64,000 bases of DNA from Patescibacteria group bacterium (GTDB taxonomy: Bacteria; Patescibacteriota; UBA1384; CAJBMM01). The stretch covers positions 238,481-302,480 of the forward strand of contig JBAZWC010000001.1 of NCBI GenBank assembly GCA_041660565.1. The letters run 5' to 3'. The notes under the pieces are model-generated. The model did no database searches and was not told the origin of the DNA. It was given only the letters and a program-made list of their open reading frames with translations. Below, piece by piece: positions 40,083 to 60,530 of this stretch. Made by a program: the position numbers and the translations under genes. The first letter of the stretch is position 1; each line of letters starts with the position of its first letter.

Positions 40083-40127
40083 GGTGTCATCTGGCTGTAG
40101 CGCACCACACAGGGGAGGTAAGGCAAA

Positions 40128-40538: not shown

Positions 40539-40563
40539 CCCACGCACACCCATCTCCACCTCG

Positions 40564-40600
40564 TCTCCGCACGCGCCAGTCGCCTGCGGAGATGTTTTTT
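40564..40600 (+). terminator. rho-independent terminator (tctccgca...tgcggaga + TTTTTT)
   Basis: 8-bp stem, 13-nt loop, T6 tract. Confidence 0.65.
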
Positions 40601-40601
40601 A

Positions 40602-40629
40602 TTGACAAAACGCAACATTACTCTATAAT
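40602..40629 (+). promoter_or_regulatory. perfect-consensus promoter TTGACA-N16-TATAAT
   Basis: ttgacaaaacgcaacattactctataat. Confidence 0.65.
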
Positions 40630-40694
40630 TAATGCCATCAACCGTACCTGCACAACCTAGGTCTTCCGTTCTGGACCAGAGAGGATATCGCGCG

Positions 40695-41240: not shown

Positions 41241-41287
41241 GACACATCAACCATATCGTGCCGAGACGATCACCACCAACCAACAAC

Positions 41288-41330
41288 CCTCCGCGACGGG
41301 CAACCGTTTCGGAGGGTATTTTATTTATAT
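41288..41330 (+). terminator. rho-independent terminator (ccctccg...cggaggg + tattttattt)
   Basis: third member of the same terminator family at the end of the GC-rich island. Confidence 0.6.
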
Positions 41331-41357
41331 AGATTCCGGATCTAGTCCGGAATGACA
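41324..41357. repeat. palindromic element type A (ATAGATTCCGGAtctagTCCGGAATGACAC)
   Basis: marks the right border of the GC-rich island. Confidence 0.7.
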
Positions 41358-42160: not shown

Positions 42161-42192
42161 GTCATTCCGGGCTTGACCCGGAATCTATATAG
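42161..42192. repeat. palindromic element type A (GTCATTCCGGGCTTGACCCGGAATCTATATAG)
   Basis: identical to the 19237 copy. Confidence 0.75.
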
Positions 42193-42211: not shown

Positions 42212-42287
42212 GGATCCCGGATACTCCTTACAACCTTGCGATTGAAGTCGTTAGTTTCTATCGAAACAATCAAGTCCGGGATGACAG
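42212..42287. repeat. ~76-nt structured element type C (GGATCCCGGATACTCC ... GTTTCtatcGAAAC ... CAAGTCCGGGATGACA)
   Basis: long-range inverted ends plus internal 5-bp hairpins; second copy at 63905-63986 with compensatory changes. Confidence 0.6.
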
Positions 42288-43360: not shown

Positions 43361-46300
43361 CTAGGCGGACTTAACCACCTCATCGCGTACCGGTTTTACC
43401 ACTGGCATATCTGTCGGTTCCAACTCGGCTTTATCTATTAAAGTATTCTCTTCGGTAACCGCTAATTCAACCACTGTGTCCAAACCGGTTCCGGCCGGGA
43501 TTAGCTTACCAATAATCACATTTTCTTTTAATCCACGTAGGTGATCAATTTTACCGGTGGTGGCAGCGCCAATTAACACCGATGTGGTTTCTTGGAAACT
43601 GGCTGCGGACAAGAAGCTATCGGTCAAAATGGCTACGCGGGTAATACCTAGAATCATATCTTCGGCAGTGGCCAACGCGCCTTTTTTGGCTTTGGCTTCT
43701 TTGTTTTCGTTGTTTAGGCGAATGCGGTCGGTAATTTGGCCCGGCAATAGCGAAGTTGAGCCGGAATCTAACACGCGCACTTTAGATGACATTCGTTTAA
43801 CAATCACTTCAACGTGCTTGTTGTTAATGCTTTGTCCTTGAGATGCGTAGATAGACTGTACTTCTTCAATGATATATTTCTGTACCGCACTGAAACCAAT
43901 AATGTCAACCGCGGATAACAGATCCAAGTGGCCTTCGGTAATGCGATCACCCATTTTAACTTTATCACCATGTTTAACTAACACGTTAATGACCGATGGA
44001 ACACGATATTCTTTGGTAACTTTGTCACCGGATTCAACAAAGACCGCGGTCTTGGTGAATCGTACATTTCCGGCAATTCCGGATCTAATAGCCACACCGT
44101 TTGGATTGGTAGCTAAAATGCGTTTTGGTTTTACCGCTTCGCCATTTTCAACCACCACGGTGTATTCCGGAGTTAGTTTGTGTTCTTCTTGTTTCTCGTG
44201 ATCTGAGGTAATTTTAATTAATTTGTCTTCTTTGTCTTCGGTAATTGATACTTTACCATCTACCTCTGCCAATACGGCGGCGTTTCTAGGCAAGCGACAT
44301 TCTAACAGCTCTTCAACTCGTGGCAAACCAGAGGTAATGTCTGCAGCCGAAGCTACACCACCCATGTGGAAGTTTCTCATGGTTAGCTGAGTTCCCGGCT
44401 CACCAATGGCTTGGGCGGCCATAATACCAATTACTTGGCCTTTTTCTACCATTTTTCCGGTAGCTAGGTTTTCACCGTAGCACAGCTGACAAACCCCAAA
44501 ATCGGCTTGGCAATGCAACAGCGTTCTAATAGTAACCGATTCTACTCCGGCCTCTACCAGCTGATCGTAAACTGATTCGGTAATTAAGGTGTTACGTTTA
44601 ATTTTACCGGCATTTTTAGCCAAAACACGCCCAATAATCGCTTCCTTGGCACCAACGCCAAAGTCGGTTGAGTAGCTGAGCGAGATCTCCATGCCTTCTT
44701 CGGTTTGGCAATCTTCGGCGGTAATAATAATATCTTGAGATACATCTACCAATCTTCGGGTTAGATATCCCGCTTCAGAAGTTCTAAGTGCGGTGTCAGC
44801 ACGTCCTTTTCTGGATCCGTGAGACGAGTTAAAGTATTCAAACACCGACAAACCTTCTTTAAAGTTGCTAATCATTGGCAATTCGATAATATCTCCGGAT
44901 GGGTTCACCACCAATCCTTTCATACCAGCCATCTGAGTCAACTGAGTATTTGAACCACGAGCACCACTGGTAATCATGGCGTAAATTGGGCTGTTTTTGT
45001 CAAATTGTGATAACATTTCTTTCTGAATTTCGGCCACCACGTCTAACCATAACTGAACTACGCTCTGATAACGCTCTTGTTCGGTGATCAAACCGCGATT
45101 AAACTGTTTTTCGATCAATTCAACGTTATTTTCGGCAGTTTTGATAATTTCACCCTTATTGGCCGGCACTTGAACATCGCTCATAGAGAATGTCATACCG
45201 GAAAGGGTGCTGTGTTTAAAGCCTAATGATTTAACGCGGTCCACAAAACCGGCGGTCTCGTCGGTGCCGCATTTTTCAAACACTTCTTTAACCACTTTGC
45301 GCAAAGCGCGTTTGTCCATCACTTCGTTTTTGAACGCCAAGTTGGTGGGCAAAATATCGTTAAAGATAATGCGTCCAATACAAGTTTCAATGATTTCATC
45401 ATCAATTTTGACTTTAATTTTAGAGTTAATGTCTATTACTTGATGATAAAATGCCATGCGCGCTTCATCGCGGCTGGAGAAGATTTTACCTTCGCCACGT
45501 TTGCCTTCTTTAATGGTGGTGATGTAGAAACAACCAAGCACCATATCTAGCGATGGGGTCACAATTGGCTCACCAGAGGATGGTTTTAGCAAGTTGTGGC
45601 TGGATACCATAATGCTGCCGGCCTCGGCTTGCGCTTGAGCGGATAGCGGAATGTGCACAGCCATTTGGTCACCATCAAAGTCTGCGTTAAAGGCGGAACA
45701 AACTAAAGGATGAATCTGAATAGCCTTACCCTCAATCAAAATTGGTTTGAAGGCTTGAATACCCAATCGGTGCAAGGTGGGGGCGCGGTTTAGCAATACG
45801 TAGTGCTGAGACGTAATTTCTTCCAAAATATCCCACACAAACGAATCACCTTGCTCAATTAACCGGGTGGCGTTTTTAACGTTATGAACGTAACCATCAG
45901 AAATCAGCCGGCCAATAATAAATGGCTTAAATAGCTCTAGCGCCATCATTTTTGGCAAACCACATTCGTTTAGTTTCAAGTTAGGTCCAACCACAATCAC
46001 GGATCGTCCAGAGTAGTCAACCCGTTTTCCAAGCAAGTTCTGGCGGAAACGGCCTTGTTTGCCTCGTAACAAATCGGACAGTGAACGCAATTTACGTTTT
46101 GATCCAACAGAAGCGACAGCTTTCCCGCGGCGGGCGTTGTTGTCAATTAAAGCATCAACCGCTTCTTGCAACATGCGTTTTTCGTTGCGAGCGATAACTT
46201 CTGGCGCACCTTGCGATAGCAATTTCTTTAAGCGATTGTTGCGGTTTAACACGCGACGATACAAATCATTAAGGTCTGAGGCGGCAAAACGGCCACCATC

Positions 46301-47176
46301 TAGCTGCACCATTGGGCGCAAATCTGGTGGAATAACCGGAATGCGAGTTTGCACCAACCAAGTTGGGCTAATACCGGCTTCTCTAAGATCGATGAGCAAT
46401 TTTAAGCGTTTCACCATCTTGCGTTTGGCGGTACCGGTAGCGGTGCGAGCATCGTCGGTAATTTGGGTGATAATAGCGTTAACATCAATCCGTTTTAGTA
46501 ACTCCAAAATGGCTTCGGCACCAATGCCCACGCGCACAATGTGCCCGTATTTCAATGAAATATCGTGATATCGGCTTTCCGAGATAATCTGGTTAGAACC
46601 TAAATTATTTAATTCGGTTTTAGCAGATTTGTATGCCGCTTCTACTTCGGCTGCCGAGGCGTCGTTTTTACCTAAACTGGAGTCTTTATACTCTTTAAAT
46701 TCCAATTCAAGTTGTTCTAATGTTTGCTGGCGAATAGTTTCGTTCACTTCAATAATGACAAAACCGGCAAAGTAAATTACCTTTTCCAGCTCGGAAACTG
46801 TCATATTTAATAACGTGCCCAAAATGCTTGGAATACCGTGAATGTACCAAACGTGAGCTACCGGCACTGCTAAATCAATATGCCCTAAGCGCTCTCGTCT
46901 AACGGCACTACGCGTTACTTCTACGCCACATTTATCACAAACCACACCTTTATAGCGGATTTTACGATATTTGCCACAGTAACATTCCCAGTCTTTGGTT
47001 GGTCCAAAAATGCGCTCGTCAAATAAACCGTCGCGCTCTGGTTTTTGGGTGCGATAGTTAATAGTTTCCGGTTTGGTAACTTCACCGTGTGACCAAGCTA
47101 AAATTTCGTCCGGGCTAGCAATAGCAATACGAACAGCGGCGAATAAATCTTGACTTTGAGTGTCTTCGTACTTCAT
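43361..47176 (-). CDS. rpoC: DNA-directed RNA polymerase beta' subunit (start trimmed to MKYEDTQSQDLFAAVRIAIASPDEI)
   Basis: aaggag RBS before ATG 47176; the longer ORF would overlap rpoB by 53 nt; NADFDGD motif. Confidence 0.95.
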   Translation of the reverse strand: MKYEDTQSQDLFAAVRIAIASPDEILAWSHGEVTKPETINYRTQKPERDGLFDERIFGPTKDWECYCGKYRKIRYKGVVCDKCGVEVTRSAVRRERLGHIDLAVPVAHVWYIHGIPSILGTLLNMTVSELEKVIYFAGFVIIEVNETIRQQTLEQLELEFKEYKDSSLGKNDASAAEVEAAYKSAKTELNNLGSNQIISESRYHDISLKYGHIVRVGIGAEAILELLKRIDVNAIITQITDDARTATGTAKRKMVKRLKLLIDLREAGISPTWLVQTRIPVIPPDLRPMVQLDGGRFAASDLNDLYRRVLNRNNRLKKLLSQGAPEVIARNEKRMLQEAVDALIDNNARRGKAVASVGSKRKLRSLSDLLRGKQGRFRQNLLGKRVDYSGRSVIVVGPNLKLNECGLPKMMALELFKPFIIGRLISDGYVHNVKNATRLIEQGDSFVWDILEEITSQHYVLLNRAPTLHRLGIQAFKPILIEGKAIQIHPLVCSAFNADFDGDQMAVHIPLSAQAQAEAGSIMVSSHNLLKPSSGEPIVTPSLDMVLGCFYITTIKEGKRGEGKIFSSRDEARMAFYHQVIDINSKIKVKIDDEIIETCIGRIIFNDILPTNLAFKNEVMDKRALRKVVKEVFEKCGTDETAGFVDRVKSLGFKHSTLSGMTFSMSDVQVPANKGEIIKTAENNVELIEKQFNRGLITEQERYQSVVQLWLDVVAEIQKEMLSQFDKNSPIYAMITSGARGSNTQLTQMAGMKGLVVNPSGDIIELPMISNFKEGLSVFEYFNSSHGSRKGRADTALRTSEAGYLTRRLVDVSQDIIITAEDCQTEEGMEISLSYSTDFGVGAKEAIIGRVLAKNAGKIKRNTLITESVYDQLVEAGVESVTIRTLLHCQADFGVCQLCYGENLATGKMVEKGQVIGIMAAQAIGEPGTQLTMRNFHMGGVASAADITSGLPRVEELLECRLPRNAAVLAEVDGKVSITEDKEDKLIKITSDHEKQEEHKLTPEYTVVVENGEAVKPKRILATNPNGVAIRSGIAGNVRFTKTAVFVESGDKVTKEYRVPSVINVLVKHGDKVKMGDRITEGHLDLLSAVDIIGFSAVQKYIIEEVQSIYASQGQSINNKHVEVIVKRMSSKVRVLDSGSTSLLPGQITDRIRLNNENKEAKAKKGALATAEDMILGITRVAILTDSFLSAASFQETTSVLIGAATTGKIDHLRGLKENVIIGKLIPAGTGLDTVVELAVTEENTLIDKAELEPTDMPVVKPVRDEVVKSA

Positions 47177-47186
47177 TTCTTCTCCT

Positions 47187-50100
47187 TTATGCTTCTTCAG
47201 CAGCTGCGACAGGCTCTGACAACTCGTCATCACTGCCAATTTCGGTTACTAATTTATCCACTGCTTCTTCGTCTTCAATCATGCCGCCAACCGGCTCGTT
47301 TAAGATTTCTTCTAAGGTTTCACCAGTGTCAGAGACCGGCGCCATCGCCTTTTTGGCCTCTTCCAAATGAATTTCAAAGTTTTTGGCGTCTTCATCGCTT
47401 AACAACTGAACCGACAAGCCTAAGCTTTGCAACTCTTTAACCAACACGTTAAACGATTCCGGAATAGATGGTTTTTGAATTGGATCGCCCTTAATAATGG
47501 CTTCGTAAACTTTGCTTCTACCCACGGTGTCATCGGATTTAACCGTCAACATTTCTTGCAAAGTATGAGCGGCACCATAAGCCTCTAATGCCCAAACTTC
47601 CATTTCTCCGAATCGCTGGCCACCAAACTGGGCTTTTCCACCCAATGGCTGCTGGGTGATCATGGAGTATGGTCCAACTGAACGAGCGTGCATCTTGTCA
47701 TCAACCAAGTGAGACAATTTCATGATGTAGTTAATACCGGTGGTAGTAGTGTGATCAAAACCGGCGCCGCTGCGGCCATCAAACAACTGAATTTTGCCGG
47801 TCTTAGGCAATTTGGCTTTCTCTAAGTAAGTTTGAATCTGCTCCCAACTTAAACCTTCAAATACCGGGCTGGCTACTTTGATGTTTAAGGTGTTGGCGGC
47901 CCAGCCTAGGTGAGTCTCTAAAATCTGACCCAAGTTCATACGGGAAACCACACCCAGCGGGTTAAGAATGATGTCTACCGGCGTGCCATCTGGCATATAC
48001 GGCATATCTTCTACCGGCAAAATGGTAGAAATAACACCTTTGTTACCGTGACGTCCGGCTAATTTATCACCAACCGCAATTTTACGTAACTGAGCCACCG
48101 AGATTTCTACTTGCTGATAAACACCGGCTGGCAACTCATCACCCTGATCTTTATTAAATAATTTAATCTCAACCACTTTACCGCGTTCGCCGTGAGGCAA
48201 GCGCAAAGAGGCGTCTCGGACGTCTTTGGCTTTTTCACCAAAGATGGCGCGTAACAATTTTTCTTCGGCAGACAACTCGGTCTCACCTTTAGGCGTAATT
48301 TTACCCACCAAAATGTCGCCGGTCTCTACCTCTGCACCAATGCGCACAATACCGCTTTCGTCTAAGTTAGACAGCGCTTCTTCGGACACGTTTGGGATAT
48401 CTTGAGTGATTACTTCTGGCCCCAATTTAGTGTCTCGTACTTCACAAACGTATTTTTCGATGTGAATAGAGGTGAAACGATCTCGATGTAACATGCGCTC
48501 GGAAATAATGATAGCATCTTCAAAGTTACCACCACCCCAGCTCATAAACGCCACCAAAACGTTCTGACCCAAGGCCAGCTCGCCTTTATCGGTGGCAGAG
48601 CTATCGGCAATCACCTGACCCTTAACCACGTGTTGCTCAACATCTACAATTGGACGTTGGTTAATACAAGTGGCCTGGTTTGATCGCACAAATTTCTGTA
48701 ATTTATAAACTTTTTTCTCTTTAGTATCGTCTTCCAACACGGTAATGTGATGGGCGGTTGATTCCAAAACCGTACCAGACTCATCGGCAATAATAATCTG
48801 ACCGGAGTCGTAAGCGGCCTCGTACTCCATACCAGTACCCACCACCGGAGATTGCGGCACAATAACCGGCACAGCTTGACGTTGCATGTTTGCACCCATC
48901 AACGCGCGCGCGGCTTCATCGTGTTCAATGAACGGGATCAAGGAAGCCGAAATACCCAAAATCTGTTTCGGCGAAACATCAATATATTGAATTTTCTTAG
49001 TATCTTCAACCGCCGGCTCACCAAATCTACGCACCAAAGTACGAACTTCTGTAAAGTAGCCGTCTTTGTCAATTGGAGCTGAGGCTGGAGCAATGATGTG
49101 ACGCTCTTCGGTGGCGGCATCTAAATAATCAATTTTATCACTAACCTTGGTCTTGCCATCAATCTGCTCAACTTTGCGGTAAGGTGATTCGATAAAACCG
49201 TAATCATTCACCCGTCCGTAAGAAGCCAAATAGCCCACCAACCCAATGTTCGGGCCTTCTGGGGTTTCAATTGGGCAAATGCGGCCGTAATGAGTAGGAT
49301 GAACGTCTCGAACTTCGAAACCGGCGCGCTCACGAGAAAGTCCACCCGGACCGGTAGCGGAAAGCGTGCGCTTGTTACCAAGCTCGGCTAGCGGGTTAGT
49401 CTGGCTCATAAACTGTGATAACTGAGATGAGGCAAAGAACTCTTGCAACACCGCCATAATTGGGCGCGAGTTAACCAACTGCGCCGGCGTAACGGTGGCA
49501 ATGTCTGAGACGCTCATGCGATCTTTAACAATACGTTCCATACGCAACAAACCAACGCGAATTTTAGCCTGCACCAATTCACCCACGGCGCGAACGCGGC
49601 GGTTGGCTAAGTGATCGATATCATCTTTCTTAGCAGTTGGATCGTTATTTAATCTAATTACTTCTTTAACGATGGCGATAAAATCATCCATCCGCAAAAT
49701 TCGATTCTCAACTACGTCTTTAACCTGCAAATTCAAACGAATGTTCATGCGATAACGGCCAACGCGCCCAAGATCGTAGCGTTTGTTATTAAAGAACAAC
49801 ATATTCAAGAACGAACGTGCGCCTTCTGGGTTAGCCAAGTCTCCCGGGCGAATCTTTTTATAAACTTCTACCACGGCCTGATCTTCGCTTTTAGTCACGT
49901 CTTTTTCAAGTGTGGCGTTAATGTACTGGTGATCTGGATTAGTATCTACATCTTTAAACAAATCACGAATAGCATCGTCGTTAGCGTAACCAAAAGCACG
50001 CAAGAACGTAGTGACATTAATGCGGCGTTTGCGATCAATTTTAACCGTAATCACGTCTTTAGCGTTAGTTTCAACTTCTAACCATGCGCCGCGGTTAGGA

Positions 50101-50579
50101 ATAATTTTAGCGCCAAATAAGTTGCGGCCGGGCACTTCATCGTTAGCAAAAAGTACGCCATATGAGCGTACAATCTGGGTAACAACCACACGCTCAATAC
50201 CGTTAATAATAAAGGTGCCGCGTTTGGTCATCAACGGGAAATCACCCAAAAAGACATCGCTCTCTTTAATTTCACCGGTTTCTTTGTTCAACAAGCTAGC
50301 GCGAGCCTTAAATGGGGCTTTGTAAGTTAAGTTTTTGTCGCGCGCCATTTCTTCGGTAATGCGCGATTTGTCTAGGGTTGGAGAGCTAAAAGTAAGCGAC
50401 AAGCTTTTGCCGGTAAAATCTTCTATTGGATTAATCTCGTCTAAAAGCTCTTGAACACCTTGCTCAAACAACCATTTATATGAGTTCGTCTGAATTTCGA
50501 TAAGGTTTGGTAACTTGGTGGGGTTTGGATTACCGGATAAATAGATTCTTTCTGGCTTAGTGCTTGCACTTTTACTCAT
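47187..50579 (-). CDS. rpoB: DNA-directed RNA polymerase beta subunit
   Basis: 1130 aa; conserved beta-subunit blocks; agggag RBS before ATG 50579. Confidence 0.95.
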   Translation of the reverse strand: MSKSASTKPERIYLSGNPNPTKLPNLIEIQTNSYKWLFEQGVQELLDEINPIEDFTGKSLSLTFSSPTLDKSRITEEMARDKNLTYKAPFKARASLLNKETGEIKESDVFLGDFPLMTKRGTFIINGIERVVVTQIVRSYGVLFANDEVPGRNLFGAKIIPNRGAWLEVETNAKDVITVKIDRKRRINVTTFLRAFGYANDDAIRDLFKDVDTNPDHQYINATLEKDVTKSEDQAVVEVYKKIRPGDLANPEGARSFLNMLFFNNKRYDLGRVGRYRMNIRLNLQVKDVVENRILRMDDFIAIVKEVIRLNNDPTAKKDDIDHLANRRVRAVGELVQAKIRVGLLRMERIVKDRMSVSDIATVTPAQLVNSRPIMAVLQEFFASSQLSQFMSQTNPLAELGNKRTLSATGPGGLSRERAGFEVRDVHPTHYGRICPIETPEGPNIGLVGYLASYGRVNDYGFIESPYRKVEQIDGKTKVSDKIDYLDAATEERHIIAPASAPIDKDGYFTEVRTLVRRFGEPAVEDTKKIQYIDVSPKQILGISASLIPFIEHDEAARALMGANMQRQAVPVIVPQSPVVGTGMEYEAAYDSGQIIIADESGTVLESTAHHITVLEDDTKEKKVYKLQKFVRSNQATCINQRPIVDVEQHVVKGQVIADSSATDKGELALGQNVLVAFMSWGGGNFEDAIIISERMLHRDRFTSIHIEKYVCEVRDTKLGPEVITQDIPNVSEEALSNLDESGIVRIGAEVETGDILVGKITPKGETELSAEEKLLRAIFGEKAKDVRDASLRLPHGERGKVVEIKLFNKDQGDELPAGVYQQVEISVAQLRKIAVGDKLAGRHGNKGVISTILPVEDMPYMPDGTPVDIILNPLGVVSRMNLGQILETHLGWAANTLNIKVASPVFEGLSWEQIQTYLEKAKLPKTGKIQLFDGRSGAGFDHTTTTGINYIMKLSHLVDDKMHARSVGPYSMITQQPLGGKAQFGGQRFGEMEVWALEAYGAAHTLQEMLTVKSDDTVGRSKVYEAIIKGDPIQKPSIPESFNVLVKELQSLGLSVQLLSDEDAKNFEIHLEEAKKAMAPVSDTGETLEEILNEPVGGMIEDEEAVDKLVTEIGSDDELSEPVAAAEEA

Positions 50580-51035
50580 CACATTTCTCCCTTTGTTATC
50601 GAAACTATATTATTTATATATATTAGATTTGGGTGATAATACGCATCACAGTTTGTCATTTCGACTCCCTCCGGGCGTAGTCTACGGGCAGAGCCTCGAG
50701 CGTTGTCTCGAGGGTGGAGAAATCTTCATAAAGAGTTCTCCTCGGTTCCGTTCTCTGTCCTCTGTCATCTGTTTTCCGAATTTACACAAAACGGCCGGTT
50801 CTGCTTGGATAGCAGAAACAGCCTGCTTAATGTCAGGACTTAAGCCGAAATTATTACCATGAGGCTCCGACGTTTGGCTAATCTATATTTAGGCTATCAA
50901 AAGTTTGATAGCTTGTCAACCCCCTGGCAACGAGGGGTTGCCAAAATTTTAAATTTTAAATTTTAAATTTGAAATTGGTCGAATTTTTGTTTTTAGATAG
51001 TCTTTCACCCGGATTGTCATTCCGGGCTCGACCCG

Positions 51036-51120
51036 GAATCTATATAAATAGAACATCCATACGCAGTTCAAATTATAAATTTCAAAATGTAAATTCACCC
51101 ACCCGCCTTGCTCTTTACTC
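51036..51120. repeat. composite element: type A palindrome + AACATCCATACGCAGT + AT-rich AAATTTCAAAATGTAAATT
   Basis: near-identical composite at 52266-52348. Confidence 0.7.
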
Positions 51121-51190
51121 TTATATATGTTATTATATTGGCATACTGAGCGCCATTGCTCAGAATTCGGTTCACAATAAGGAGTCCGTG

Positions 51191-51481
51191 ATGCGACACG
51201 CTCAAGGCGGGAAAATCCGAGGCAAGCACACGAGCATCATCGACGAGGCCGAGTCGCTGATTAAGGCGGTGGACGGCCTGGCGTGCGTTACTGGAGTGAG
51301 TCTTGGATTCATCCAGCACACCAAAGGGCGCCCAGTCCCGAAGAACCTCAAGTTCCTTGACGTGGATGCCGGGCTGCAACTCACCGTTCGCGCCCCAAAG
51401 ACGGTTCAGACGCTGATTGTCTATACCAGCGACCGAACCGGCACGGCAAAAGCGCTTTGCGAGGCCTTCTACAAGAAGTGA
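51191..51481 (+). CDS. GC-rich small hypothetical protein (96 aa)
   Basis: taaggag RBS + ATG 51191; ~58% GC; ends in a terminator shared with the next cassette. Confidence 0.4.
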   Translation: MRHAQGGKIRGKHTSIIDEAESLIKAVDGLACVTGVSLGFIQHTKGRPVPKNLKFLDVDAGLQLTVRAPKTVQTLIVYTSDRTGTAKALCEAFYKK

Positions 51482-51505
51482 CCTCGCGCCCATCACCATC
51501 CACCA

Positions 51506-51548
51506 GGCCGGCAGTCCACCACGGACTCCCGGCCTAATTCTTTGCTTA
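51506..51548 (+). terminator. rho-independent terminator ggccggcagtccaccacggactcccggcc + taattctttgc
   Basis: nested GC hairpin + T-rich tail; duplicated verbatim at 52046-52090. Confidence 0.6.
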
Positions 51549-51556
51549 TTTATCTT

Positions 51557-51598
51557 GTCATTCCGGTCCGCCGGCTGGCGGATAATCCGGAATCTACA
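51557..51598. repeat. palindromic element type A variant with extended loop (GTCATTCCGGtccgccggctggcggataaTCCGGAATCTACATA)
   Basis: same stem as type A; loop forms its own hairpin. Confidence 0.65.
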
Positions 51599-51696
51599 TA
51601 AAAAGAATCATTCCAAATGTTTTAAAATTAAAAATTAAAAATTTAAAATTTTGCTTATGTCTATCCCCCATCACAATATCGAGTCCAACATTCGTC

Positions 51697-51725
51697 TTGA
51701 CATGATTATATTATTGTAGTATATC
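51697..51725 (+). promoter_or_regulatory. promoter TTGACA-N17-TATATC
   Basis: cttgacatgattatattattgtagtatatc upstream of RBS aaaggg and ATG 51759. Confidence 0.5.
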
Positions 51726-51758
51726 TAAATTATCCTGCAAGTCGAAAGGGTTAGTCCG

Positions 51759-51947
51759 ATGCCAGAGAGAGACACGCAGTCCCGCAGTGGCAGTATCGAA
51801 GTGACAGTGGGCTCCGGCCGCGATGGCGGCACCGGCCAGTCGACGACCGACATGCTGATCATCGATCACGACAGCCGCGACGGTAGCCACGACCACGTGG
51901 TCATCAGCGAGTCCGGCGAGACGCTGCACGACACCACCCGCAAGTAG
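51759..51947 (+). CDS. GC-rich small acidic low-complexity protein (62 aa), hypothetical
   Basis: ~63% GC ORF with its own promoter, RBS and the duplicated terminator. Confidence 0.3.
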   Translation: MPERDTQSRSGSIEVTVGSGRDGGTGQSTTDMLIIDHDSRDGSHDHVVISESGETLHDTTRK

Positions 51948-52045
51948 GAAGTGCACGGAGGGCTAACGCTCACACCGACACTTCCTGGGCAGATACCTCT
52001 ATCGGAGGCGTCTGCCTGTAATCATAGAACAGGGCCTCACCAAAG

Positions 52046-52090
52046 GCCGGCAGTCCACCACGGACTCCCGGCCTAATTCTTTGCCAATTT
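52046..52090 (+). terminator. second copy of the ggccggcagtccaccacggactcccggcc terminator
   Basis: identical 29-nt hairpin + taattctttgcc. Confidence 0.6.
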
Positions 52091-52102
52091 TTGTTTTCCC
52101 CT

Positions 52103-52348
52103 GTCATTCCGGATTTAATCCGGAATCTATTCCTATGGTGTCATTCCCGCGAAGGTGGGAATCCAGCCTATAAAAAACCGTCTTTCTTCTGGATCCCCGA
52201 ATAAAATGTCGGGGATGACAATTTAGTCAAAACCGTGCTCAAAAGAGAACCGTCCCCTATCCTTTGTCATTCCGGGCTCGACCTGGAATCTATATAGATA
52301 AAACTTCCATACACAGTAAAAATTAAAAAATTTAAAATTTAAAATTCC
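52103..52348. repeat. cluster of palindromic elements: type A (52103-52132), type B (52139-52175), type D ATCCCCGaataaaatgtCGGGGATGACA (52192-52224), composite type A + AT-rich (52266-52348)
   Basis: each has a perfect 7-8 bp inverted repeat; type B is near-identical to 19276-19312. Confidence 0.7.
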
Positions 52349-53094
52349 ACGGTCTTAACCGCCTCGGTGTAACCACAATAATCACAACTTGGATTGGCTT
52401 CTGGAATACTATCACTATTCAAACACTCATGTGCTTTAAGCAACGTGCCATCTATCCAACTGTCACTGCCCTTATACGCAATTAGCGTAATATCAAACTC
52501 TAACTTGGCGTCAAACGCGCTTTTGTCTGTGCGCCCGTTGCAATACACAAAATAGCCGGTATCAGAAACCTTGTAACCATTTTGCCTCAAGAGCCACTGA
52601 TACACCTCCATCTGCCGCTTATACCCGTCTTGCCACTCTTTATTAAGCTCGGTTATTTCCTCGGCTTTAGAGGTAGATTTATAATCCACCACAATATATT
52701 CACCTTGTGAGTTCTGCCACAAATCGTCAATTGCACCAAAGACTAAAAAGTTGGTTTTGGGATGCAAAAACTGCACGCCGGTAAAGTTATGCCGCCATTT
52801 TTCTAAATCTTCATGCGCCACCGGCACCGCATCTACTCCGTATTTCTGAATCAGCGGATGTTTGCTACCTTTAGCACGGTAGATATCGAATTCGAGTTTT
52901 AACAGGTGGTCAACGGCGGAGTTTAGGGCAAATGGGAATCCGGGTGGTCTGCCAACCCCTAGCCGGCGGTCTAGGTAGAAACACCGCGGGCATTCGGTAA
53001 ATAGGTCAATTTTGCTGCGGGATAACTTAAACGGCTCTGACGAATTAGGATCGTACAAGCCTTTTACTCGTTGTGGGGTGTAATATTCGTACAT
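52339..53094 (-). CDS. PD-(D/E)xK nuclease, Cas4/RecB-like with FeS-type cysteines
   Basis: GAIDDLW ... IVVDYKST (D...D-x-K); Cys at C35-x2-C38 and C225...C238-x2-C241; 4 nt after the upstream gene. Confidence 0.6.
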   Translation of the reverse strand: MYEYYTPQRVKGLYDPNSSEPFKLSRSKIDLFTECPRCFYLDRRLGVGRPPGFPFALNSAVDHLLKLEFDIYRAKGSKHPLIQKYGVDAVPVAHEDLEKWRHNFTGVQFLHPKTNFLVFGAIDDLWQNSQGEYIVVDYKSTSKAEEITELNKEWQDGYKRQMEVYQWLLRQNGYKVSDTGYFVYCNGRTDKSAFDAKLEFDITLIAYKGSDSWIDGTLLKAHECLNSDSIPEANPSCDYCGYTEAVKTVEF

Positions 53095-53097
53095 GAT

Positions 53098-55914
53098 TTA
53101 TAATTCTTTCTTAAAATCTAATTTCCTGGCTCTCTGCCGCAACGCCTCTTTACCACCCTCGAGCACATCAATTATCCTGTCTCTGATTTCTATATTTTCA
53201 ATAGAACCGGTTAGGTAATCAAAGTTATATTTTCCCGCGCTATGTCTTGAATTACTTGATACCAACACCTCTTCTGAATCAGCACAAACAACCAAACTTC
53301 CGTTATGAGAAACAATAATAATTTGCCTATCCTCCTTTTCGGACTTTATAAAGTTGACAAGGTCAGTCGCTACGCCACCAACGTCTAAGTCATCTTCAGG
53401 CTGATCTATTAATATAGGATACTTTTCGTCATCAAATCTAAATACCAACTCGAGCAAGGCAATTGCTTTTTGCCCTCCTGTCATATCCTTAAAAGCCGTG
53501 TCATTCTCCTTGGTTTTTACCGAGTTAAGATAATCAATCTCGTATCGGTTCTTTATTAATTGGGAAATTACCTGTGAAACATCAGATGCGTCAACCTTGA
53601 TTTTAATCTTGTTATTCACGAGATTAACTATTACTTTCCTAAGAGTATCATTACTTAACTGAGCAGTACTCTCACCAAAGAATTGAGTAATATCTGGTTC
53701 CTGCTTTAAGCTTGCGTCTGTGTCACGGGTGTTAATGTTTCGCTCCACGAACCTCTTTAGATCTTCGCTATTATATTCTGTGACAATATCAATATTCAGG
53801 AATGTAAATAGGTCATCAAACCGCACGGTTTCAAATACTGTTTTACGCTGATAATCATACTCTTTGTATATGTTGATTAAGGAATCGATTGCCTCTTTTT
53901 GCTGTACGTCTGATTGTTGAAGAATCTTTGTAAGTTCATCAATTTTTTTAATCGTATCCTGAAGTCCTGCTAGCTCCTTAGTCAATGTCTCGAGGGCCGT
54001 ATTTAGTTTGATTTTCTCATTGAGTGTACTAACGATCGCGCTATTCTCCTTGATAACTGTTTCGCAACTGTTAATTTCAGTTTTAATACTATCAATCTCT
54101 GCTTTTATTAGAACACTCAAACTTTCTTTTCCTTTTCTGACCAATTCATCGCGAATTAATTTCTGTCTCTCGAGTGAGAGTCTGCTAAATTCCTGGTTTG
54201 ATACATAGACTCCTGCGCCCGTCTTATCAAGAGTCTCAAGGATTGTTTTGTCCTGAGACAGCAGCAGAAGGAATTTCTGATTATCAGCAATGAGGCTCTT
54301 AGCATCCGAGTATTCTTTAATTTCCTCATCAGATATAGATGTGCTACCTGAGACCTTATATTTTTTAATTTCAACATTTTTATTTGCAATTTCTTTTTCA
54401 ATCTCAATTTTCGATCCTTGTTTTCTTATAAGAAGTGCGGTTTCGTTATTAGTAGATTTGGCTGATAGCAAGCTTTCAATTAATGCCTCTGCTTTAACTT
54501 TGTTATTTGAAGTTAACTCTTCGTAAACTTGAATCGCATTCGCAAACAATGAATGCTTTTTAAGTAATCGGGTTAAGAACTGATCCCTTTCTGCCGCTTT
54601 ATCCCCATCGTCATACGCTAAGGAACTCAAATAATTTTGGGGTATATAAAAAACGCTTTTTGGGCTGTCATTGCTACCATGATCTTCCTGCCCATCAACC
54701 CATATAACTTTCACCGAATCTAATGGATACAGATTGGCGGGCTTATCTTTTTCAGTAAATTGTGCTGGATCGACATTATGCGCGATATTTCTTAGCAACG
54801 TAGACTTCCCGCTACCGCGAACACCGATGATTGAGTTAAGATCCTGGTTAAACACAACAGTTTTGTCCTGTTGATCAGCGTTCTTGTATGTAGCTCTATC
54901 AATTATTATCCGCCCTGACTTACTATCGCCAGGATTTCTTTCCTGGATTCGTACTCTATCCTTTGGTTCCCATAAAACCTGTTTTAAACCTTCAAAACTT
55001 GTATCCGCTTTTATCCAGCAAAATAGATTATTATCTGGATTAAATAATTTTGCTTCCGTATGGGCATCGCATCCGTGAACGCAAGGTTTTAATGATCCGC
55101 ATTTACTAATAACTGTTTCCCTGTCATCGGTTTTTTCTCCCAGAAAGTATCGTCTATCTTCAGGATTGCCGGAAAAGATTGCATTAGAAATAGTATAAAT
55201 AGATTTTCTTACAGCATCGAGTTGGCTTGCAGCATCATTTTCAAATAGATCGTAATGTTTTTGTAAACCCGAAGCACCATCTACACAGGAATTACTAACT
55301 ACAATAATTACCTTCTCGCGGAAGTTGGCGTTAGCTTCATAAAGGGCATGTAATTGGCTGTGATCGACGACAAACGAATCTATCCCTTTTTTGTAAGCGG
55401 CTACATCACTTAAGTTTGAATCGATAAATTTTCCCAACCCTATAAACCCAGCTTGATTCATTTTGAACTTTCGGCCAGGCTCAGCAGCATACTCTATAGA
55501 ATTAAATAGATCGTTGTCTATATTTGCAACAAAATCAGGATTAAGTATACAGTGTATATTCACGAGCCGCCCATGATCTGTAGAGGGCATCATTCGCAAC
55601 TCGATGTTTGGTATAATAAATATTTCTTTGATCTTCACTTTTTCCTCTGGTAAGAATACAGGCTCGCCAGATTCGTTTGTTTCATGGAAACTGTCAATAT
55701 TATCGACGAACTCTTTAACCTTTTTGTAGTTATCAATATTAAAATAGTCAGTAATTCCAATTACGACGATTTCTTTTGATAACGCTTCCCTTAATAGAGT
55801 CGTGCAAAACTGGCCGAAGGATTGACTTGTAAACCTATCATTTTTAGCAGTATCTTTTGTATGAACATGTAGATCCCACCTTGCCCATATTGAACCGCGA
55901 GGATTGTTACGCAT
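53098..55914 (-). CDS. PHP-domain phosphoesterase fused to SMC/Rad50/SbcC-like ABC ATPase with long coiled coil (Ppl-like)
   Basis: N-term WDLHVHT (PHP motif); GVRGSGKSTLL Walker A; ~450-aa coiled-coil; MTGGQKA signature; PILIDQPEDDLD Walker B/D-loop; IIIVSHN H-loop. Confidence 0.7.
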   Translation of the reverse strand: MRNNPRGSIWARWDLHVHTKDTAKNDRFTSQSFGQFCTTLLREALSKEIVVIGITDYFNIDNYKKVKEFVDNIDSFHETNESGEPVFLPEEKVKIKEIFIIPNIELRMMPSTDHGRLVNIHCILNPDFVANIDNDLFNSIEYAAEPGRKFKMNQAGFIGLGKFIDSNLSDVAAYKKGIDSFVVDHSQLHALYEANANFREKVIIVVSNSCVDGASGLQKHYDLFENDAASQLDAVRKSIYTISNAIFSGNPEDRRYFLGEKTDDRETVISKCGSLKPCVHGCDAHTEAKLFNPDNNLFCWIKADTSFEGLKQVLWEPKDRVRIQERNPGDSKSGRIIIDRATYKNADQQDKTVVFNQDLNSIIGVRGSGKSTLLRNIAHNVDPAQFTEKDKPANLYPLDSVKVIWVDGQEDHGSNDSPKSVFYIPQNYLSSLAYDDGDKAAERDQFLTRLLKKHSLFANAIQVYEELTSNNKVKAEALIESLLSAKSTNNETALLIRKQGSKIEIEKEIANKNVEIKKYKVSGSTSISDEEIKEYSDAKSLIADNQKFLLLLSQDKTILETLDKTGAGVYVSNQEFSRLSLERQKLIRDELVRKGKESLSVLIKAEIDSIKTEINSCETVIKENSAIVSTLNEKIKLNTALETLTKELAGLQDTIKKIDELTKILQQSDVQQKEAIDSLINIYKEYDYQRKTVFETVRFDDLFTFLNIDIVTEYNSEDLKRFVERNINTRDTDASLKQEPDITQFFGESTAQLSNDTLRKVIVNLVNNKIKIKVDASDVSQVISQLIKNRYEIDYLNSVKTKENDTAFKDMTGGQKAIALLELVFRFDDEKYPILIDQPEDDLDVGGVATDLVNFIKSEKEDRQIIIVSHNGSLVVCADSEEVLVSSNSRHSAGKYNFDYLTGSIENIEIRDRIIDVLEGGKEALRQRARKLDFKKEL

Positions 55915-58750
55915 TAGTAATCCTTAATAGTCCGGGCACTGTTGAGTGAACCGTTATCCTATCAGTCGGGACAATAATGTATCTCCATGGTTTTATAATG
56001 CCATTAGATCCAATATTTCTCGAAACCAGATCACAATACTTCTCAGCTGTCTTCTTTTTCTCTTGAACATTATGGGCCAGTATTTCACTTTCTGGTTTCA
56101 CTTCAACCATTACAATTTCATGCTCCAATTCGACTACAAAATCTGGTTCATATCTATGTTGCGATTCACCGTTTTCGTCACGCCAGTATAAGCCTTCAAA
56201 CTGATTGGGTGCCGGTCGAAGCCAATCTATGACAGATCCATCCCTTTCTAGAAGATACGCTAAGCGAACTTCGTCCGAGGAATCAAATCGATATTTAGAA
56301 TGACAGGCTTTTTGAAACTTGCCATAAAGCAGTTTGGCGTTAAATGTATCCACCTGCGAATCAAGAAAAACAACCTTTTCATCAAAAGATTCGGAAATAT
56401 TGTACTGTTCCAGATATGGTTTTGGTTCTCGTATATCCGATTCAAGATATCCTTCAGACTTTAGCTCCTTATGTTCTAAAATCTGCTTATAGATATCCTC
56501 GGCGATTGAACGTGCGTTACTTTCAATTATTAAGGCCAAATTATCCTCGTCGATTGCCTTTTTACGGTAATATACCACTGCTTGTTCCGCCAACTTGAGA
56601 AGTAATGGTTTTTGAGCTGGGTCATCATAATCAACCAACGGAAAGTCCAATAGTGCAGCGATTATCGTGCTTTGTGGGGATTGCCTATAATGCGCTCCAA
56701 AACTACTGATTCTCGTCACCTCGCTCACCCTGCGACCAGGGACTTCTTCTCCGAATAGGTTTTCCTCATGCTCATTCTGTAGTTGCTCTTCAAGAATAGC
56801 CCGTTCGTTGGTATAGGTACGCAACATTCCAAAACTTGTATCTAAGTCAAAATGTTCAATGGATAGCTCTCCAAAATGTGGAGTGAGAATTAGGCGCGGA
56901 ATGGGTATATTTCTTTTTTCCATTGTTGCGGCAGATTCTTTTGCAATCTTAGAAAGTTCATCTTTTACCTCATCGCTGAAAGAACCAAACAGAGTATCGG
57001 GGCCAAATGAGATCTCTGTGGGCGCACCAGATTCCTGACCGTAATAATTAGAAAATGTGAGGCTCTTGATCGTCTCTCTAGTCAACCCGCCAACAATTTC
57101 ATCTTTCTTAGCCTCGGCGAATCTTTCTCTGACAGATTCATCCATACTTTCACTTTGAGGGAAGCTAGCAACAATCGCTTCAACCTTCTCGTCTACTGCC
57201 CGCATCACCAAATTATTTTGGGTTATCTCCCTCATTAGAACATCAAGAATCACCGGTTGGACTTCGGCTAATACTTTAACCTCTTTTGCCTCGCGTTCAG
57301 ATATCTGCTCTACCTGTCCTTGAATAAGTGGTGAATCTTTAGCAAGCGCAACTACTTTAGAATACTGTTCATGGGCAACAAGCACTAATCTATCCACCAA
57401 AGGAACGCCGGTTCGTTCTCCGTAAGGCAATCGCAAACCGCGCCCAATGGTTTGCTCAGTTAGAATTGCAGCGGCTGATTCACGTAGGGGCGCGATGGTA
57501 TAGACGTTTGTAACATCCCAGCCCTCTTTAAGCATGTTGACATGAATCACAATCTCAATCGGATTGTCGGGATGCTCAAGAGAGATTAGTTTCTCAATAT
57601 TTTCATCAGCCTCATCCCCGCGAAGTCTTGTATGTATTTCAATTACTTTTCCGGCAAACTCTCCGGCACGGAAGTTCTCACTTTCAATCAGGTTTCTTAG
57701 CTCTCCTGCATGCGTTGTGTCTTTAGCCACAACCAGCATAACTGGCTTTACAACCGATCTATTGTTTTCTAGCGCATATTCTTTTAAGGCATTCTTAGCT
57801 CGTTCGTGAAAAAAGGCGGCTAGTTGTAATTTACGGGCATCAGTATCAATCGAATCCGGATCAAATTGGCTGAAATCCACATCAGCTTCAGTACCGATCC
57901 ACGGATCCTTAACTAGTTTACCTCGAATGGCATCACCAAGATTATATGAATACAAAACATTTTTCATTCTGGTCTGAGTTGCATTTCTGCCTGTGCCTTG
58001 AGTGCCCAAATAAGGCGTTGCAGTCATCTCCAAGCCAAATAGAGGATCGAGTATATCAAGTGCCCCAAGCGCGGCATCAGCGTGGTAATGATGGGCTTCA
58101 TCAAGCATGACCACTAAATCGTCGTGTTCCTTAAGGTAATCAAAATACGACTCGCCAGCTGTTTCCCAAGCTTTCGTTATACCTCGTTCATTGGTCATGT
58201 CTCTCTGGGCAAACTGCTGAACATTAAAGATATTTATCTCAATCTGGTTGCCAAAAAGAGTGTACCCGCGCTGTTTTGTATAGTTATCAACTGTAATTAC
58301 CTTGGCTGTGTTGATATTTATCTCTTGGATACCTTTGAAAACATACTTTGGGTTATTTGCTTTACTAAAATCATCAAATAGCTTTCGGTAGATAGTTAGG
58401 TTGGGGGCAACTATCAAAAAGTGCTGGATGTTATAAACCAAGTATAAATACGCTACAAAAGCACCCATTAATCTGGTTTTACCCACTCCAGTGGCCAGAG
58501 CGAAAGTGTAAGCGGGGAATTTTCGCTCAAATTCCTCAAACCCGCGCGCTTCAGGGACAGTGCTAAAATATTCTCTGCTTGTTTCCAATATTTCAGCAGT
58601 ATCGCCTCGATTCGTTTTCTTCATGCGGGCTAACACCCTTTGCCCAGCTTCTGATTGTAAGTAATTAGCAAATATCTCTAAACTTTTGAGCTGCGGATCG
58701 CGCAGGCTCATTGCATTGTTGATATATACAAGTGCTTCTTGTGGAGTCAT
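55907..58750 (-). CDS. Type III restriction Res-like protein: DEAH helicase + C-terminal PD-(D/E)xK endonuclease
   Basis: FALATGVGKTRLMGAF (motif I), VVMLDEAHHY (DEAH), TIGRGLRLPYG (motif VI), C-term YEPDFVVELEHEIVMVEVKPE. Confidence 0.75.
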   Translation of the reverse strand: MTPQEALVYINNAMSLRDPQLKSLEIFANYLQSEAGQRVLARMKKTNRGDTAEILETSREYFSTVPEARGFEEFERKFPAYTFALATGVGKTRLMGAFVAYLYLVYNIQHFLIVAPNLTIYRKLFDDFSKANNPKYVFKGIQEININTAKVITVDNYTKQRGYTLFGNQIEINIFNVQQFAQRDMTNERGITKAWETAGESYFDYLKEHDDLVVMLDEAHHYHADAALGALDILDPLFGLEMTATPYLGTQGTGRNATQTRMKNVLYSYNLGDAIRGKLVKDPWIGTEADVDFSQFDPDSIDTDARKLQLAAFFHERAKNALKEYALENNRSVVKPVMLVVAKDTTHAGELRNLIESENFRAGEFAGKVIEIHTRLRGDEADENIEKLISLEHPDNPIEIVIHVNMLKEGWDVTNVYTIAPLRESAAAILTEQTIGRGLRLPYGERTGVPLVDRLVLVAHEQYSKVVALAKDSPLIQGQVEQISEREAKEVKVLAEVQPVILDVLMREITQNNLVMRAVDEKVEAIVASFPQSESMDESVRERFAEAKKDEIVGGLTRETIKSLTFSNYYGQESGAPTEISFGPDTLFGSFSDEVKDELSKIAKESAATMEKRNIPIPRLILTPHFGELSIEHFDLDTSFGMLRTYTNERAILEEQLQNEHEENLFGEEVPGRRVSEVTRISSFGAHYRQSPQSTIIAALLDFPLVDYDDPAQKPLLLKLAEQAVVYYRKKAIDEDNLALIIESNARSIAEDIYKQILEHKELKSEGYLESDIREPKPYLEQYNISESFDEKVVFLDSQVDTFNAKLLYGKFQKACHSKYRFDSSDEVRLAYLLERDGSVIDWLRPAPNQFEGLYWRDENGESQHRYEPDFVVELEHEIVMVEVKPESEILAHNVQEKKKTAEKYCDLVSRNIGSNGIIKPWRYIIVPTDRITVHSTVPGLLRITNA

Positions 58751-58753
58751 GGC

Positions 58754-60526: not shown

Positions 60527-60530
60527 AGCT

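Follow-up and report, generated by a model that had tools for sequence, protein, structure and literature searches.

We analysed a 64-kb stretch of DNA (the window) from a ~516-kb contig of a metagenome-assembled genome (MAG) of Patescibacteria, the candidate phyla radiation (CPR), and describe here two small GC-rich genes that lie upstream of rpoB. The window has an overall GC content of 42%, and its minus strand carries almost all host genes, including the S10/spc/alpha ribosomal clusters, tuf, fusA, rpsG, rpsL, rpoC (43361–47239) and rpoB (47187–50582). Between the start of rpoB and the 3′ end of a gene for a Cas4-like PD-(D/E)XK nuclease is a gap of 1.75 kb, the site of both small genes. 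The first open reading frame, ORF1 (WC773_01455; 51191–51481, plus strand), encodes 96 amino acids (aa) with an isoelectric point (pI) of 9.7, and the second, ORF2 (WC773_01460; 51759–51947, plus strand), encodes 62 aa with a pI of 4.85. Both are annotated by NCBI as hypothetical proteins. An earlier reading of the letters alone, made by a model with no database searches (the sequence-only reading), had described this accessory stretch as two independent small-gene units with a common 3′ hairpin; both ORFs are present as it gave them, and that description holds.

The two genes are set apart from their surroundings by composition. GC content rises in two islands, at 51151–51600 (peak 0.61) and 51726–52100 (peak 0.66), against 0.42 for the window. 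At codon positions 1, 2 and 3, GC content is 0.60, 0.43 and 0.72 in ORF1 and 0.59, 0.49 and 0.86 in ORF2; this order, with position 2 the lowest, fits the annotated frames, and the long antisense ORFs that are also present (134 and 81 aa) show the mirrored pattern, with position 1 highest. Third-position GC (GC3) is 0.28–0.49 in the 48 host ORFs among the 53 long ORFs of the window. Only five of the 53 are outliers (0.66–0.86), all on the plus strand: ORF1, ORF2 and three ORFs of a second segment, the sister island described below. The codon-position pattern and the outlying GC3 values together indicate that ORF1 and ORF2 are true coding sequences of foreign composition, with foreign codon usage. 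The GC-rich segments might instead be structured non-coding RNA genes, as each lies between a promoter-like site and a terminator-like hairpin and there are further hairpins in the 5′ and 3′ untranslated regions (UTRs). The strong three-base periodicity, a search of Rfam that gave no match for the region even at E ≤ 1, and the 187 protein homologues and confident predicted fold of ORF1 make that reading very improbable.

A word-index protein search with ORF1 returned only ORF1 itself. Its family came to light only by exhaustive HMMER search, which at E ≤ 1e-3 gave 187 homologues of about 95 aa that align over their full length at 35–47% identity. ORF1 retains every invariant or near-invariant residue of the family (G6, K8, H13, V33, I41, G61 and Q73). 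The sequence-only reading had left room for decaying junk with no intact ORFs in relatives; for ORF1 this is refuted, as its reading frame is intact and it belongs to a conserved protein family. When 58 of these were aligned, 47 matched Pfam DUF2103 (PF09876), with E values down to 1.2e-11. ORF1 itself scores 15.5 bits against that profile (E = 0.017), below the gathering threshold of 22.4. The likeness extends over nearly the whole profile, with residues 7–81 aligning to positions 4–83 of 98, and most homologues score as DUF2103; ORF1 differs in having no Cys/His cluster that would fit the ‘metal-binding’ label of the family. An AlphaFold2 model built with the family alignment has a mean predicted local distance difference test score (pLDDT) of 93 and consists of a helix, four strands and a second helix. 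No convincing structural neighbour of the model was found in the PDB, and a viral protein, A0A5P8D682, resembles the fold with a TM-score of 0.76. ORF1 is thus an intact, divergent member of a DUF2103-related family of small basic alpha/beta proteins. Published work connects DUF2103 with type III CRISPR-Cas loci and puts forward a ‘DUF2103-like’ domain as an effector domain of Menshen NsnC (PMC12065111). We treat this link as a lead and not as a function; ORF1 would most likely be a small nucleic-acid-directed or defence-associated factor.

The genomic contexts of ORF1 homologues were also inspected. Their neighbourhoods are CPR-like, with genes for RNase J, tRNA synthetases, RecQ and DUF4012, and one is annotated as Candidatus Moranbacteria. 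Two homologues resemble ORF1 in composition and each has its own TTGACA-N17 promoter: in locus L002 the homologue has a GC3 of 0.69 vs 0.41 for host genes, and in L088 it has 0.72 vs 0.26–0.44 for its neighbours. In L001 and L091, in contrast, homologue composition is host-like. Outlying GC3 in two loci and host-like composition in two others fit a mobile gene that gradually adopts the composition of its host. In a further locus, L087, two paralogues stand in a row of small genes that each have a terminator of their own. Across five homologue contexts, whose surroundings are mostly housekeeping genes, no conserved neighbour of the DUF2103-like genes was found. In L088 a gene for a small acidic protein follows the homologue after 30 nucleotides (nt), and ORF2 has no similarity to that protein. 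As a separate observation, the low-GC metagenome contigs L002 (1531–3300 and 5919–6963) and L088 (6001–6294) hold two classes of genes, a GC3-rich class (0.69–0.80) that includes the DUF2103-like homologue and host genes at 0.26–0.45, and the GC3-rich genes of L002 lie on the strand opposite to host genes. Two long proteins, P0028 (682 aa, VCBS domain-containing, from Colwellia) and P0033 (1913 aa), matched parts of ORF1 in 6 and 11 stretches, respectively; the matches come either from a related, beta-rich module present in several copies or from an artefact of composition.

ORF2 contains 12 Asp or Glu among its 62 residues. The sequence-only reading had called it highly acidic; it is acidic, as its pI confirms, and not to an extreme degree. 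A single-sequence model (pLDDT 72) is a four-strand beta meander with no match in the PDB, and on this model ORF2 may be a small acidic beta protein. By itself, an ORF this long carries no significance in DNA of 65% GC, and the main support for coding is the GC3 bias (54/63 codons). Downstream of ORF2 is a GC-rich 3′ UTR of 96 nt (51948–52043, plus strand) with a hairpin of its own, GGCAGA...TCTGCC. The frame stays open for another 42 codons beyond the UAG stop, through the terminator hairpin to 52076 (ORF 51951–52076, same frame); GC3 in this extension is only 0.44, so that it is probably not coding, and read-through or a recent nonsense mutation is conceivable. Neither cassette ORF had a match in PHROG, and searches of Pfam, NCBIfam and PADLOC for toxin–antitoxin functions gave no match for either. 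The two ORFs were also considered as a type II toxin–antitoxin pair, and this was rejected: a terminator, a repeat palindrome and a separate promoter-like site lie between them, and they have no toxin or antitoxin domains.

Both units end in the same hairpin. The 40-mer GGCCGGCAGTCCACCACGGACTCCCGGCCTAATTCTTTGC occurs in exactly two copies, at 51506–51545 and 52045–52084, against none expected; exact identity extends over 41 nt (51505–51545 and 52044–52084), and identity is 91% over 55 nt. The sequence-only reading had described a duplicated terminator of 45 nt; the duplication is there, the exactly repeated length is 41 nt, and its coordinate for the second copy was off by one. The first copy, the terminator-like module T1 (51505–51545, plus strand), is a stem-loop (51505–51535) followed by TAATTCTTTGC, and T2 (52044–52084, plus strand) is identical to it. 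The hairpins fold at −22.7 (T1) and −22.9 (T2) kcal/mol, with z scores of −6.1 and −4.9 relative to shuffled sequence. A 13-nt complementarity was also seen: the ribosome-binding site (RBS) and start of ORF1, GGAGTCCGTGATG (51181–51193), can pair at 12 of 13 positions with the loop and 3′ arm of both hairpins (51517–51529 and 52056–52068). Such pairing could sequester the RBS; by our estimate it is at about chance level in 2 kb, and it was not used as evidence.

Each unit also has candidate signals for its own expression. For ORF1, a candidate promoter, TTGCTC-17-TATTAT (51108–51136, plus strand), was read by eye, and an alternative, TTGGCA-17-CAGAAT (51138–51166, plus strand), was the sole candidate flagged by a promoter scan; a 5′-UTR hairpin, CTGAGC-N6-GCTCAG, is at 51146–51163 (plus strand). 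The ORF2 candidate (51697–51725, plus strand) combines a perfect TTGACA with TATATC at a spacing of 17 nt, and went unflagged because the last base of its −10 hexamer is not T. ORF1 is preceded by the Shine-Dalgarno sequence AAGGAG (51179–51184, plus strand) 6 nt before its AUG, and ORF2 by a weak one, AAAGGG (51745–51750, plus strand), 8 nt before its AUG. Thus, of the promoter and RBS that the sequence-only reading assigned to each ORF, the RBSs stand, while the promoters are plausible and weaker than it implied. We also note AGTCCG just before the start codon of ORF2.

The 5′ module of the units is made up of the palindrome TTGTCATTCCGG...CCGGAATCTA together with a short tail and an A/T tract that is phased. 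In module M1 (51014–51093, plus strand) the palindrome is ATTCCGGGCTCGACCCGGAAT (51019–51039), which folds at −12.2 kcal/mol and is followed by the tail CTATATAAATAGAACATCCATACGCAG and the A/T tract. Module M2 (51555–51653, plus strand) has a repetitive extragenic palindrome (REP) with a nested inner palindrome, ATTCCGG-TCCGCCGGCTGGCGGATA-ATCCGGAAT (51560–51593), folding at −20.9 kcal/mol, and a phased A/T tract at 51621–51653. Module M3 (52264–52343, plus strand) again has REP, tail and A/T tract, with no cargo after it; it abuts the convergent Cas4-like gene and overlaps its stop codon. M1 and M3 are the left and right copies of an 80-nt direct repeat, 86% identical, that brackets the ORF pair, and the extended tail is common to these two only; other palindrome copies do not have it. 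In opposite orientation, the phased A/T tract also lies ahead of the rpoB promoter, and the closest relative has an A/T-rich region upstream of TTGACA-17-TAGACT; we therefore take the tract to be, most plausibly, an UP-element-like promoter feature of the lineage. The two units have only the 5′ module and the 3′ hairpin in common, and the sequences in between do not align, which led us to reject the possibility that the units are diverged tandem duplicates. Two observations concern adjoining sequence. Beside M3, a promoter-like TTAACC-16-AATAAT (52355–52382, plus strand) is oriented toward the 3′ end of the Cas4-like gene, antisense to it. On the other side, rpoB has its own promoter, TTGACA-17-TAGCCT (approximately 50917–50889, minus strand), of a type conserved in the closest relative, with a leader of ~300 nt that contains a degenerate nested palindrome (50653–50720), and upstream of that promoter are a hairpin and an (AAATTT)n tract (50583–50990 region, minus strand).

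It is also possible that the two units are non-functional remnants, that is, decaying foreign fragments whose ORFs stay open since GC-rich DNA has few stop codons. ORF2 has no homologues, its long GC-rich 3′ UTR has a frame that continues past the stop, the antisense ORFs reach 134 and 81 aa, and M3 could be seen as an ‘empty’ module. Against this, ORF1 is full-length, with all conserved family residues and a confident model; both ORFs have strong in-frame GC3 periodicity, a Shine-Dalgarno sequence and an intact hairpin; and 100% identity of the hairpin copies over 41 nt points to a recent event or to selection, not to decay. We regard this explanation as quite unlikely.

The palindromes at the locus belong to a larger family. 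GTCATTCCNG is present in 12 copies in the window vs 0.31 expected, five of them inside the locus, and a broader palindrome pattern gave 12 matches vs 0.09 expected; the family TTGTCATTCCGG-N5-7-CCGGAATCTATATA thus has at least 12 copies in 64 kb, with six palindromes within the 1.3 kb of 51014–52346. A cluster of three at 52101–52219 comprises the REP ATTCCGGATTTAATCCGGAAT (52106–52126), the exact dRS3-type element ATTCCCGCGAAGGTGGGAAT (52143–52162) and an inverted variant, ATCCCCG-N10-CGGGGAT (52193–52216). The consensus of neisserial dRS3, ATTCCC-N8-GGGAAT, is matched exactly twice in the window (19288 and 52143) vs 0.01 expected, and the other ~10 palindromes are the variant ATTCCGG-N7-CCGGAAT. 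Dispersed copies outside the locus are at 19240–19307, 23512–23532, 25914–25934, 41333–41353, 42164–42184 and 63975–63984. All copies in the window are intergenic and form hairpins of −11 to −21 kcal/mol. Some are paired in inverted orientation (19237/19301, 42164/42214–42282 and 52143/52193), and some carry nested insertions (51560–51593, the copy at 63975 and the degenerate variant at ~50653–50720 in the rpoB leader). Copies are found at ordinary operon junctions, usually right after a hairpin terminator (rbfA/rpsI, map/infA and secY/LysM-protein), and at the borders of accessory segments (both sides of a pilin gene, the end of the sister island and both ends of the defence island). Because copies occur at operon junctions that have no cargo, they are REP-like elements, akin to bacterial interspersed mosaic elements (BIMEs), and not cassette ends. 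The sequence-only reading had palindromes separating and flanking the units; they do so, not as brackets specific to the cassettes, and the palindromes are a genome-wide intergenic repeat family with a dense cluster at the locus.

A second array, the sister island (39521–41356, plus strand), is built along similar lines. It consists of three GC3-rich single-gene units (ORFs within 39576–41240, GC3 0.66–0.67) and lies between fusA and the pilin gene/rpsG, splitting the str operon; fusA has its own divergent promoter. Its cargo genes encode a receiver-domain protein of 143 aa, which falls just short of the Pfam threshold (E = 6e-7), and two orphans of 136 and 202 aa; a word-index protein search with the third cassette (cassette C) returned only itself. 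Each unit has a near-consensus TTGACA-N16-TATAMT promoter and a strong hairpin terminator. The A-to-B and B-to-C junctions are formed by one common terminator-plus-promoter module with no REP, and an inverted REP (41333–41353) ends the island. Repetition of modules between unrelated cargo, seen here and at the locus upstream of rpoB, is therefore a property of both islands. Beside the sister island, a type IV pilin-like gene (41425–42069, minus strand) of host-like composition is located between rpsG and fusA and is flanked by REPs in inverted orientation (41333–41353 on one side, 42164–42184 and a long variant at 42214–42282 on the other); it may itself be an inserted unit.

Since this is a metagenome assembly with sharp switches in composition and repeats beside the islands, GC-rich segments from a contaminant might have been joined to the host contig at short repeats. 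AT-rich promoter regions, REPs and A/T tracts are, however, interleaved with the GC-rich ORFs below the 1-kb scale, and the REPs are merely ~30 nt long. Five units in two islands share a regular structure on one strand, and homologues show a like pattern in independent assemblies (L002 and L088). A chimera of this kind is highly improbable. For ORF1 and for the architecture overall, we consider the readings as junk, chimera or non-coding RNA unlikely.

The repeated modules raise the question of a dedicated gene-capture system, in which promoter–ORF–terminator cassettes are inserted by a site-specific recombinase at dRS3/REP-like palindromes, much as integron cassettes are at attC sites or as has been hypothesized for recombination at the dRS3 elements of neisserial repeat arrays. 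In both islands unrelated cargo is split by repeated junction modules, all five cassettes have one orientation, against host genes, and REPs border the islands; at the rpoB locus an 80-nt direct repeat brackets the gene pair and six palindromes lie within 1.3 kb. In addition, neisserial phages integrate into dRS3 (PMC1797815). On the other hand, neither island was seen to have a recombinase gene nearby, the palindromes have no integron core sites (RYYYAAC, GTTRRRY), the same REPs are found at cargo-free, ordinary operon junctions, the sister-island junctions have no REP, and the terminator module was found nowhere else in metagenome and viral scans. Capture of this kind is, in our judgement, rather unlikely. 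The same holds for its fuller form, an undescribed mechanism in Patescibacteria by which UP-element/promoter–ORF–hairpin cassettes from a GC-richer, phage-linked pool would enter dRS3-like arrays, for which we see little likelihood. If true, it would amount to an expressed-cargo version of a neisserial intergenic mosaic element (NIME) array inside otherwise conserved ribosomal-protein and RNA-polymerase gene clusters, and, were the repeat array a capture device, to a new route of gene gain in CPR bacteria.

On the side away from rpoB, the two units adjoin a defence island (52339–63470) with REP elements at both borders (52266 and 63975). All its genes are on the minus strand: a DrmD-like SNF2 helicase (60531–63470), a type III methyltransferase (58754–60526), a type III restriction enzyme (55907–58750), a Ppl-like PHP/ATPase protein (53098–55914) and, as the last gene of the cluster, the Cas4-like nuclease (52339–53094). 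The sequence-only reading was right that a defence cluster adjoins the stretch, and wrong that the stretch leads into the defence operon, as ORF1 and ORF2 are on the opposite strand and converge on the last gene of that operon. This proximity suggests a further explanation, namely that the pair is a functional accessory of the defence island, with ORF1 as an effector or nucleic-acid-binding protein and ORF2 as an inhibitor, antitoxin, DNA-mimic regulator or anti-restriction protein. The pair directly adjoins the Cas4-like, Ppl-like, type III restriction–modification and DrmD-like genes, its products are of opposite charge (pI 9.7 vs 4.85), DUF2103 has been connected with type III CRISPR-Cas loci and, through a proposed effector domain, with Menshen NsnC (PMC12065111), and a small acidic protein is encoded 30 nt after the L088 homologue. 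Several features argue the other way: a terminator, REP and promoter between the genes imply that they are not co-transcribed; PADLOC has no match for either; the five homologue contexts are mostly housekeeping and have no conserved neighbour; ORF2 is unlike the acidic neighbour in L088; and the cassettes are opposite in strand to the defence genes. We therefore consider a role as defence accessory unlikely.

For comparison with relatives, a collection of genomes was scanned with the N-terminal part of rpoB, yielding 80 rpoB loci. A single close relative was found, a Saccharibacteria-labelled MAG (L007; 79% identity over N-terminal rpoB); all others were at 56% identity or less. Upstream of rpoB, L007 has genes for a membrane protein, a methyltransferase-like ORF, a symporter and obg, and no cassettes, defence island or rplJL. 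The closest relative thus differs completely in its gene content upstream of rpoB, so that the site is variable, and the two cassettes are not shared with L007. The sequence-only reading had taken the stretch to occupy the normal position of rplJ–rplL. tblastn with E. coli RplL located rplL upstream of rpoB in Firmicutes, Actinomycetota, Dormiibacterota and Eisenbacteria loci, and found none in Patescibacteria, Peregrinibacteria or Chloroflexi loci or in the window, within the limited sensitivity of tblastn; that arrangement is thus not the norm in this clade, where L007 has a membrane protein at the position. When the 80 rpoB loci were crudely screened for GC3 outliers, most hits were spurious antisense ORFs, and no general CPR pattern upstream of rpoB emerged. 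In L007 we also noticed a 145-aa orphan (2537–2974, minus strand) with its own terminator, antisense between obg and the symporter, a cassette-like layout with a GC3 of only 0.49.

One possible trace of a source came from a viral-contig scan with a REP pattern of 22 specified bases, for which we estimate ~0.01 chance matches. The palindrome was found in one viral contig (L092, IMGVR_UViG_3300044800_000429) at 9770–9798, with 97% identity over 32 nt. The contig is Mu-like, with a Mu transposase and a MuB-like ATPase, and its genes have a GC3 of 0.5–0.7; the REP lies directly after a small gene with its own promoter. A GC-richer transposable phage of a REP-bearing host is thus a candidate vector, on a single observation. 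A scan of viral contigs with ORF1 gave no relative.

We consider it probable, and the best reading of the data, that both genes are moron-like single-gene units gained horizontally and lodged in a cluster of REP/dRS3-like repeats, at the variable junction that separates rpoB from the defence island. Transcription of each unit would start at a sigma-70-type promoter of its own, which the phased A/T tract would serve in the manner of an UP element. The common hairpin, together with the REP hairpin just after it, would stop or stabilize the transcript, and a transcript end at this point would keep antisense transcription from running into the convergent Cas4-like and defence genes. Recombination at the repeat array or close to it, a route suggested for the NIME arrays of Neisseria, may have brought the genes in, and the identical hairpins and the M1/M3 repeat might reflect local duplication or gene conversion during growth of the array. 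The source would be a GC-richer mobile gene pool, possibly phages of the lineage.

Several results weigh against two moron-like, horizontally acquired units. The promoters and the transcription of both units are predictions from sequence; the candidate promoters are weaker matches than those of the sister island, and one was flagged by the scan. The U-tract of the hairpin, UAAUUCUUUGC, is weak, and a simple terminator scan passed over both copies. A pattern search for the hairpin gave four matches in metagenome contigs, all in unrelated high-GC sequences, and none in viral contigs; with no genuine copy in these scans, the hairpin is not a widespread mobile motif. For ORF2, the homology search proposed in the sequence-only reading returned the protein itself and no homologue, so that it is an orphan, and an ORF of its length is expected by chance ~20% of the time at this GC content; given both, its coding status comes down to its GC3 bias. 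No empty site with a clean insertion was found, as the sole close relative, L007, differs throughout the upstream region. Phage and plasmid collections gave no blastn match for the region and no tblastn match for ORF1, and thus no donor. Finally, no recombinase, transposase or phage gene was seen nearby, the ORFs of the window being unscreened by hidden Markov models for REP-associated tyrosine transposases (RAYTs) or integrases.

The favoured reading takes its name from phage morons, a concept of Hendrix and Juhala: a single ORF with its own sigma-70-type promoter and a stem-loop terminator, and a composition unlike that of its neighbours (PMC4378225). Like morons, the units stand between unrelated genes, are clearly apart in composition (GC3 of 0.72 and 0.86 vs 0.28–0.49), and the manner of acquisition is unknown in both. 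As for the signals, the hairpins are strong, with a weak U-tract and no flag from the scan, and among the promoter-like hexamers one candidate passed. The units differ from morons in being in a cellular chromosome, by rpoB (and, for the sister island, fusA), and not in a phage or prophage, with no phage genes near; in no related genome are the flanking genes seen side by side, and the units are in short arrays with repeated junction modules.

By analogy, the setting most closely resembles in structure a neisserial NIME array. Such arrays have been hypothesized to promote recombination with exogenous DNA and were called unknown outside Neisseria; they share with the locus arrays of ~20-nt inverted repeats, AT-richer spacers, alternating GC content, adjoining variable genes and a repeat carried by a phage (PMC1797815). 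In contrast, the phylum here is Patescibacteria, and NIME spacers are 50–150 bp and non-coding whereas two spacers here are ~500 bp and hold complete genes. There is no dRS3-specific recombinase or filamentous phage in evidence here, and the palindromes have conserved flanks of their own, TTGTC... and ...CTATATA. Because spacer size, spacer content and taxon all depart from those of NIME arrays, we say that the locus may work like one, not that it is one. The palindromes resemble the REPs and BIMEs of enterobacteria and pseudomonads in being short, imperfect, multicopy and intergenic, often in inverted pairs, after terminators or 3′ ends, and clustered; they are of another sequence family, no RAYT was seen among the window ORFs, which an HMM screen did not cover, and the cluster here encloses foreign genes. 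Integron cassettes likewise form tandem, same-orientation single-ORF units of unrelated cargo with a repeated palindromic junction between them. The cassettes here have promoter-like sites and terminators of their own, however, and the sister-island junctions are terminator-plus-promoter modules with no palindrome. We rejected the identification as integron cassettes: the junction palindromes TTGTCATTCCGG...CCGGAATCTATATA have no attC cores (RYYYAAC/GTTRRRY), and the units carry those promoter-like sites. The genes flanking the islands are rpoB, the Cas4-like gene, fusA and the pilin gene; no intI or attI was found, with the rest of the window unscreened for integrases.

Overall, the locus is a case of ordinary small-scale horizontal acquisition of function-unassigned genes, with modules laid out unusually tidily among repeats that recall a NIME array. 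It offers a clean, small example of a streamlined, symbiotic CPR bacterium gaining single foreign genes as self-contained transcription units. The foreign units run against host operons in repeat-rich intergenic hot spots, at the borders of the defence island and in the split str and rpoBC clusters. dRS3/NIME-like palindrome clusters exist outside Neisseria, small proteins related to DUF2103 show the behaviour of mobile cargo in several genomes of low GC content, and the Mu-like viral contig with the same palindrome is a candidate vector.

Two further small genes in the window were recorded. An 88-aa stand-alone GIY-YIG nuclease gene (18598–18864, plus strand; Pfam E = 8e-14) lies between a membrane-protein gene and rbfA, oriented against all its neighbours, and a similar small GIY-YIG gene is part of the L088 context. 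In the spc cluster, a gene for a 224-aa LysM-domain membrane protein (25103–25777) is located between secY and adk, adjoined by a REP element and a GC-rich hairpin.

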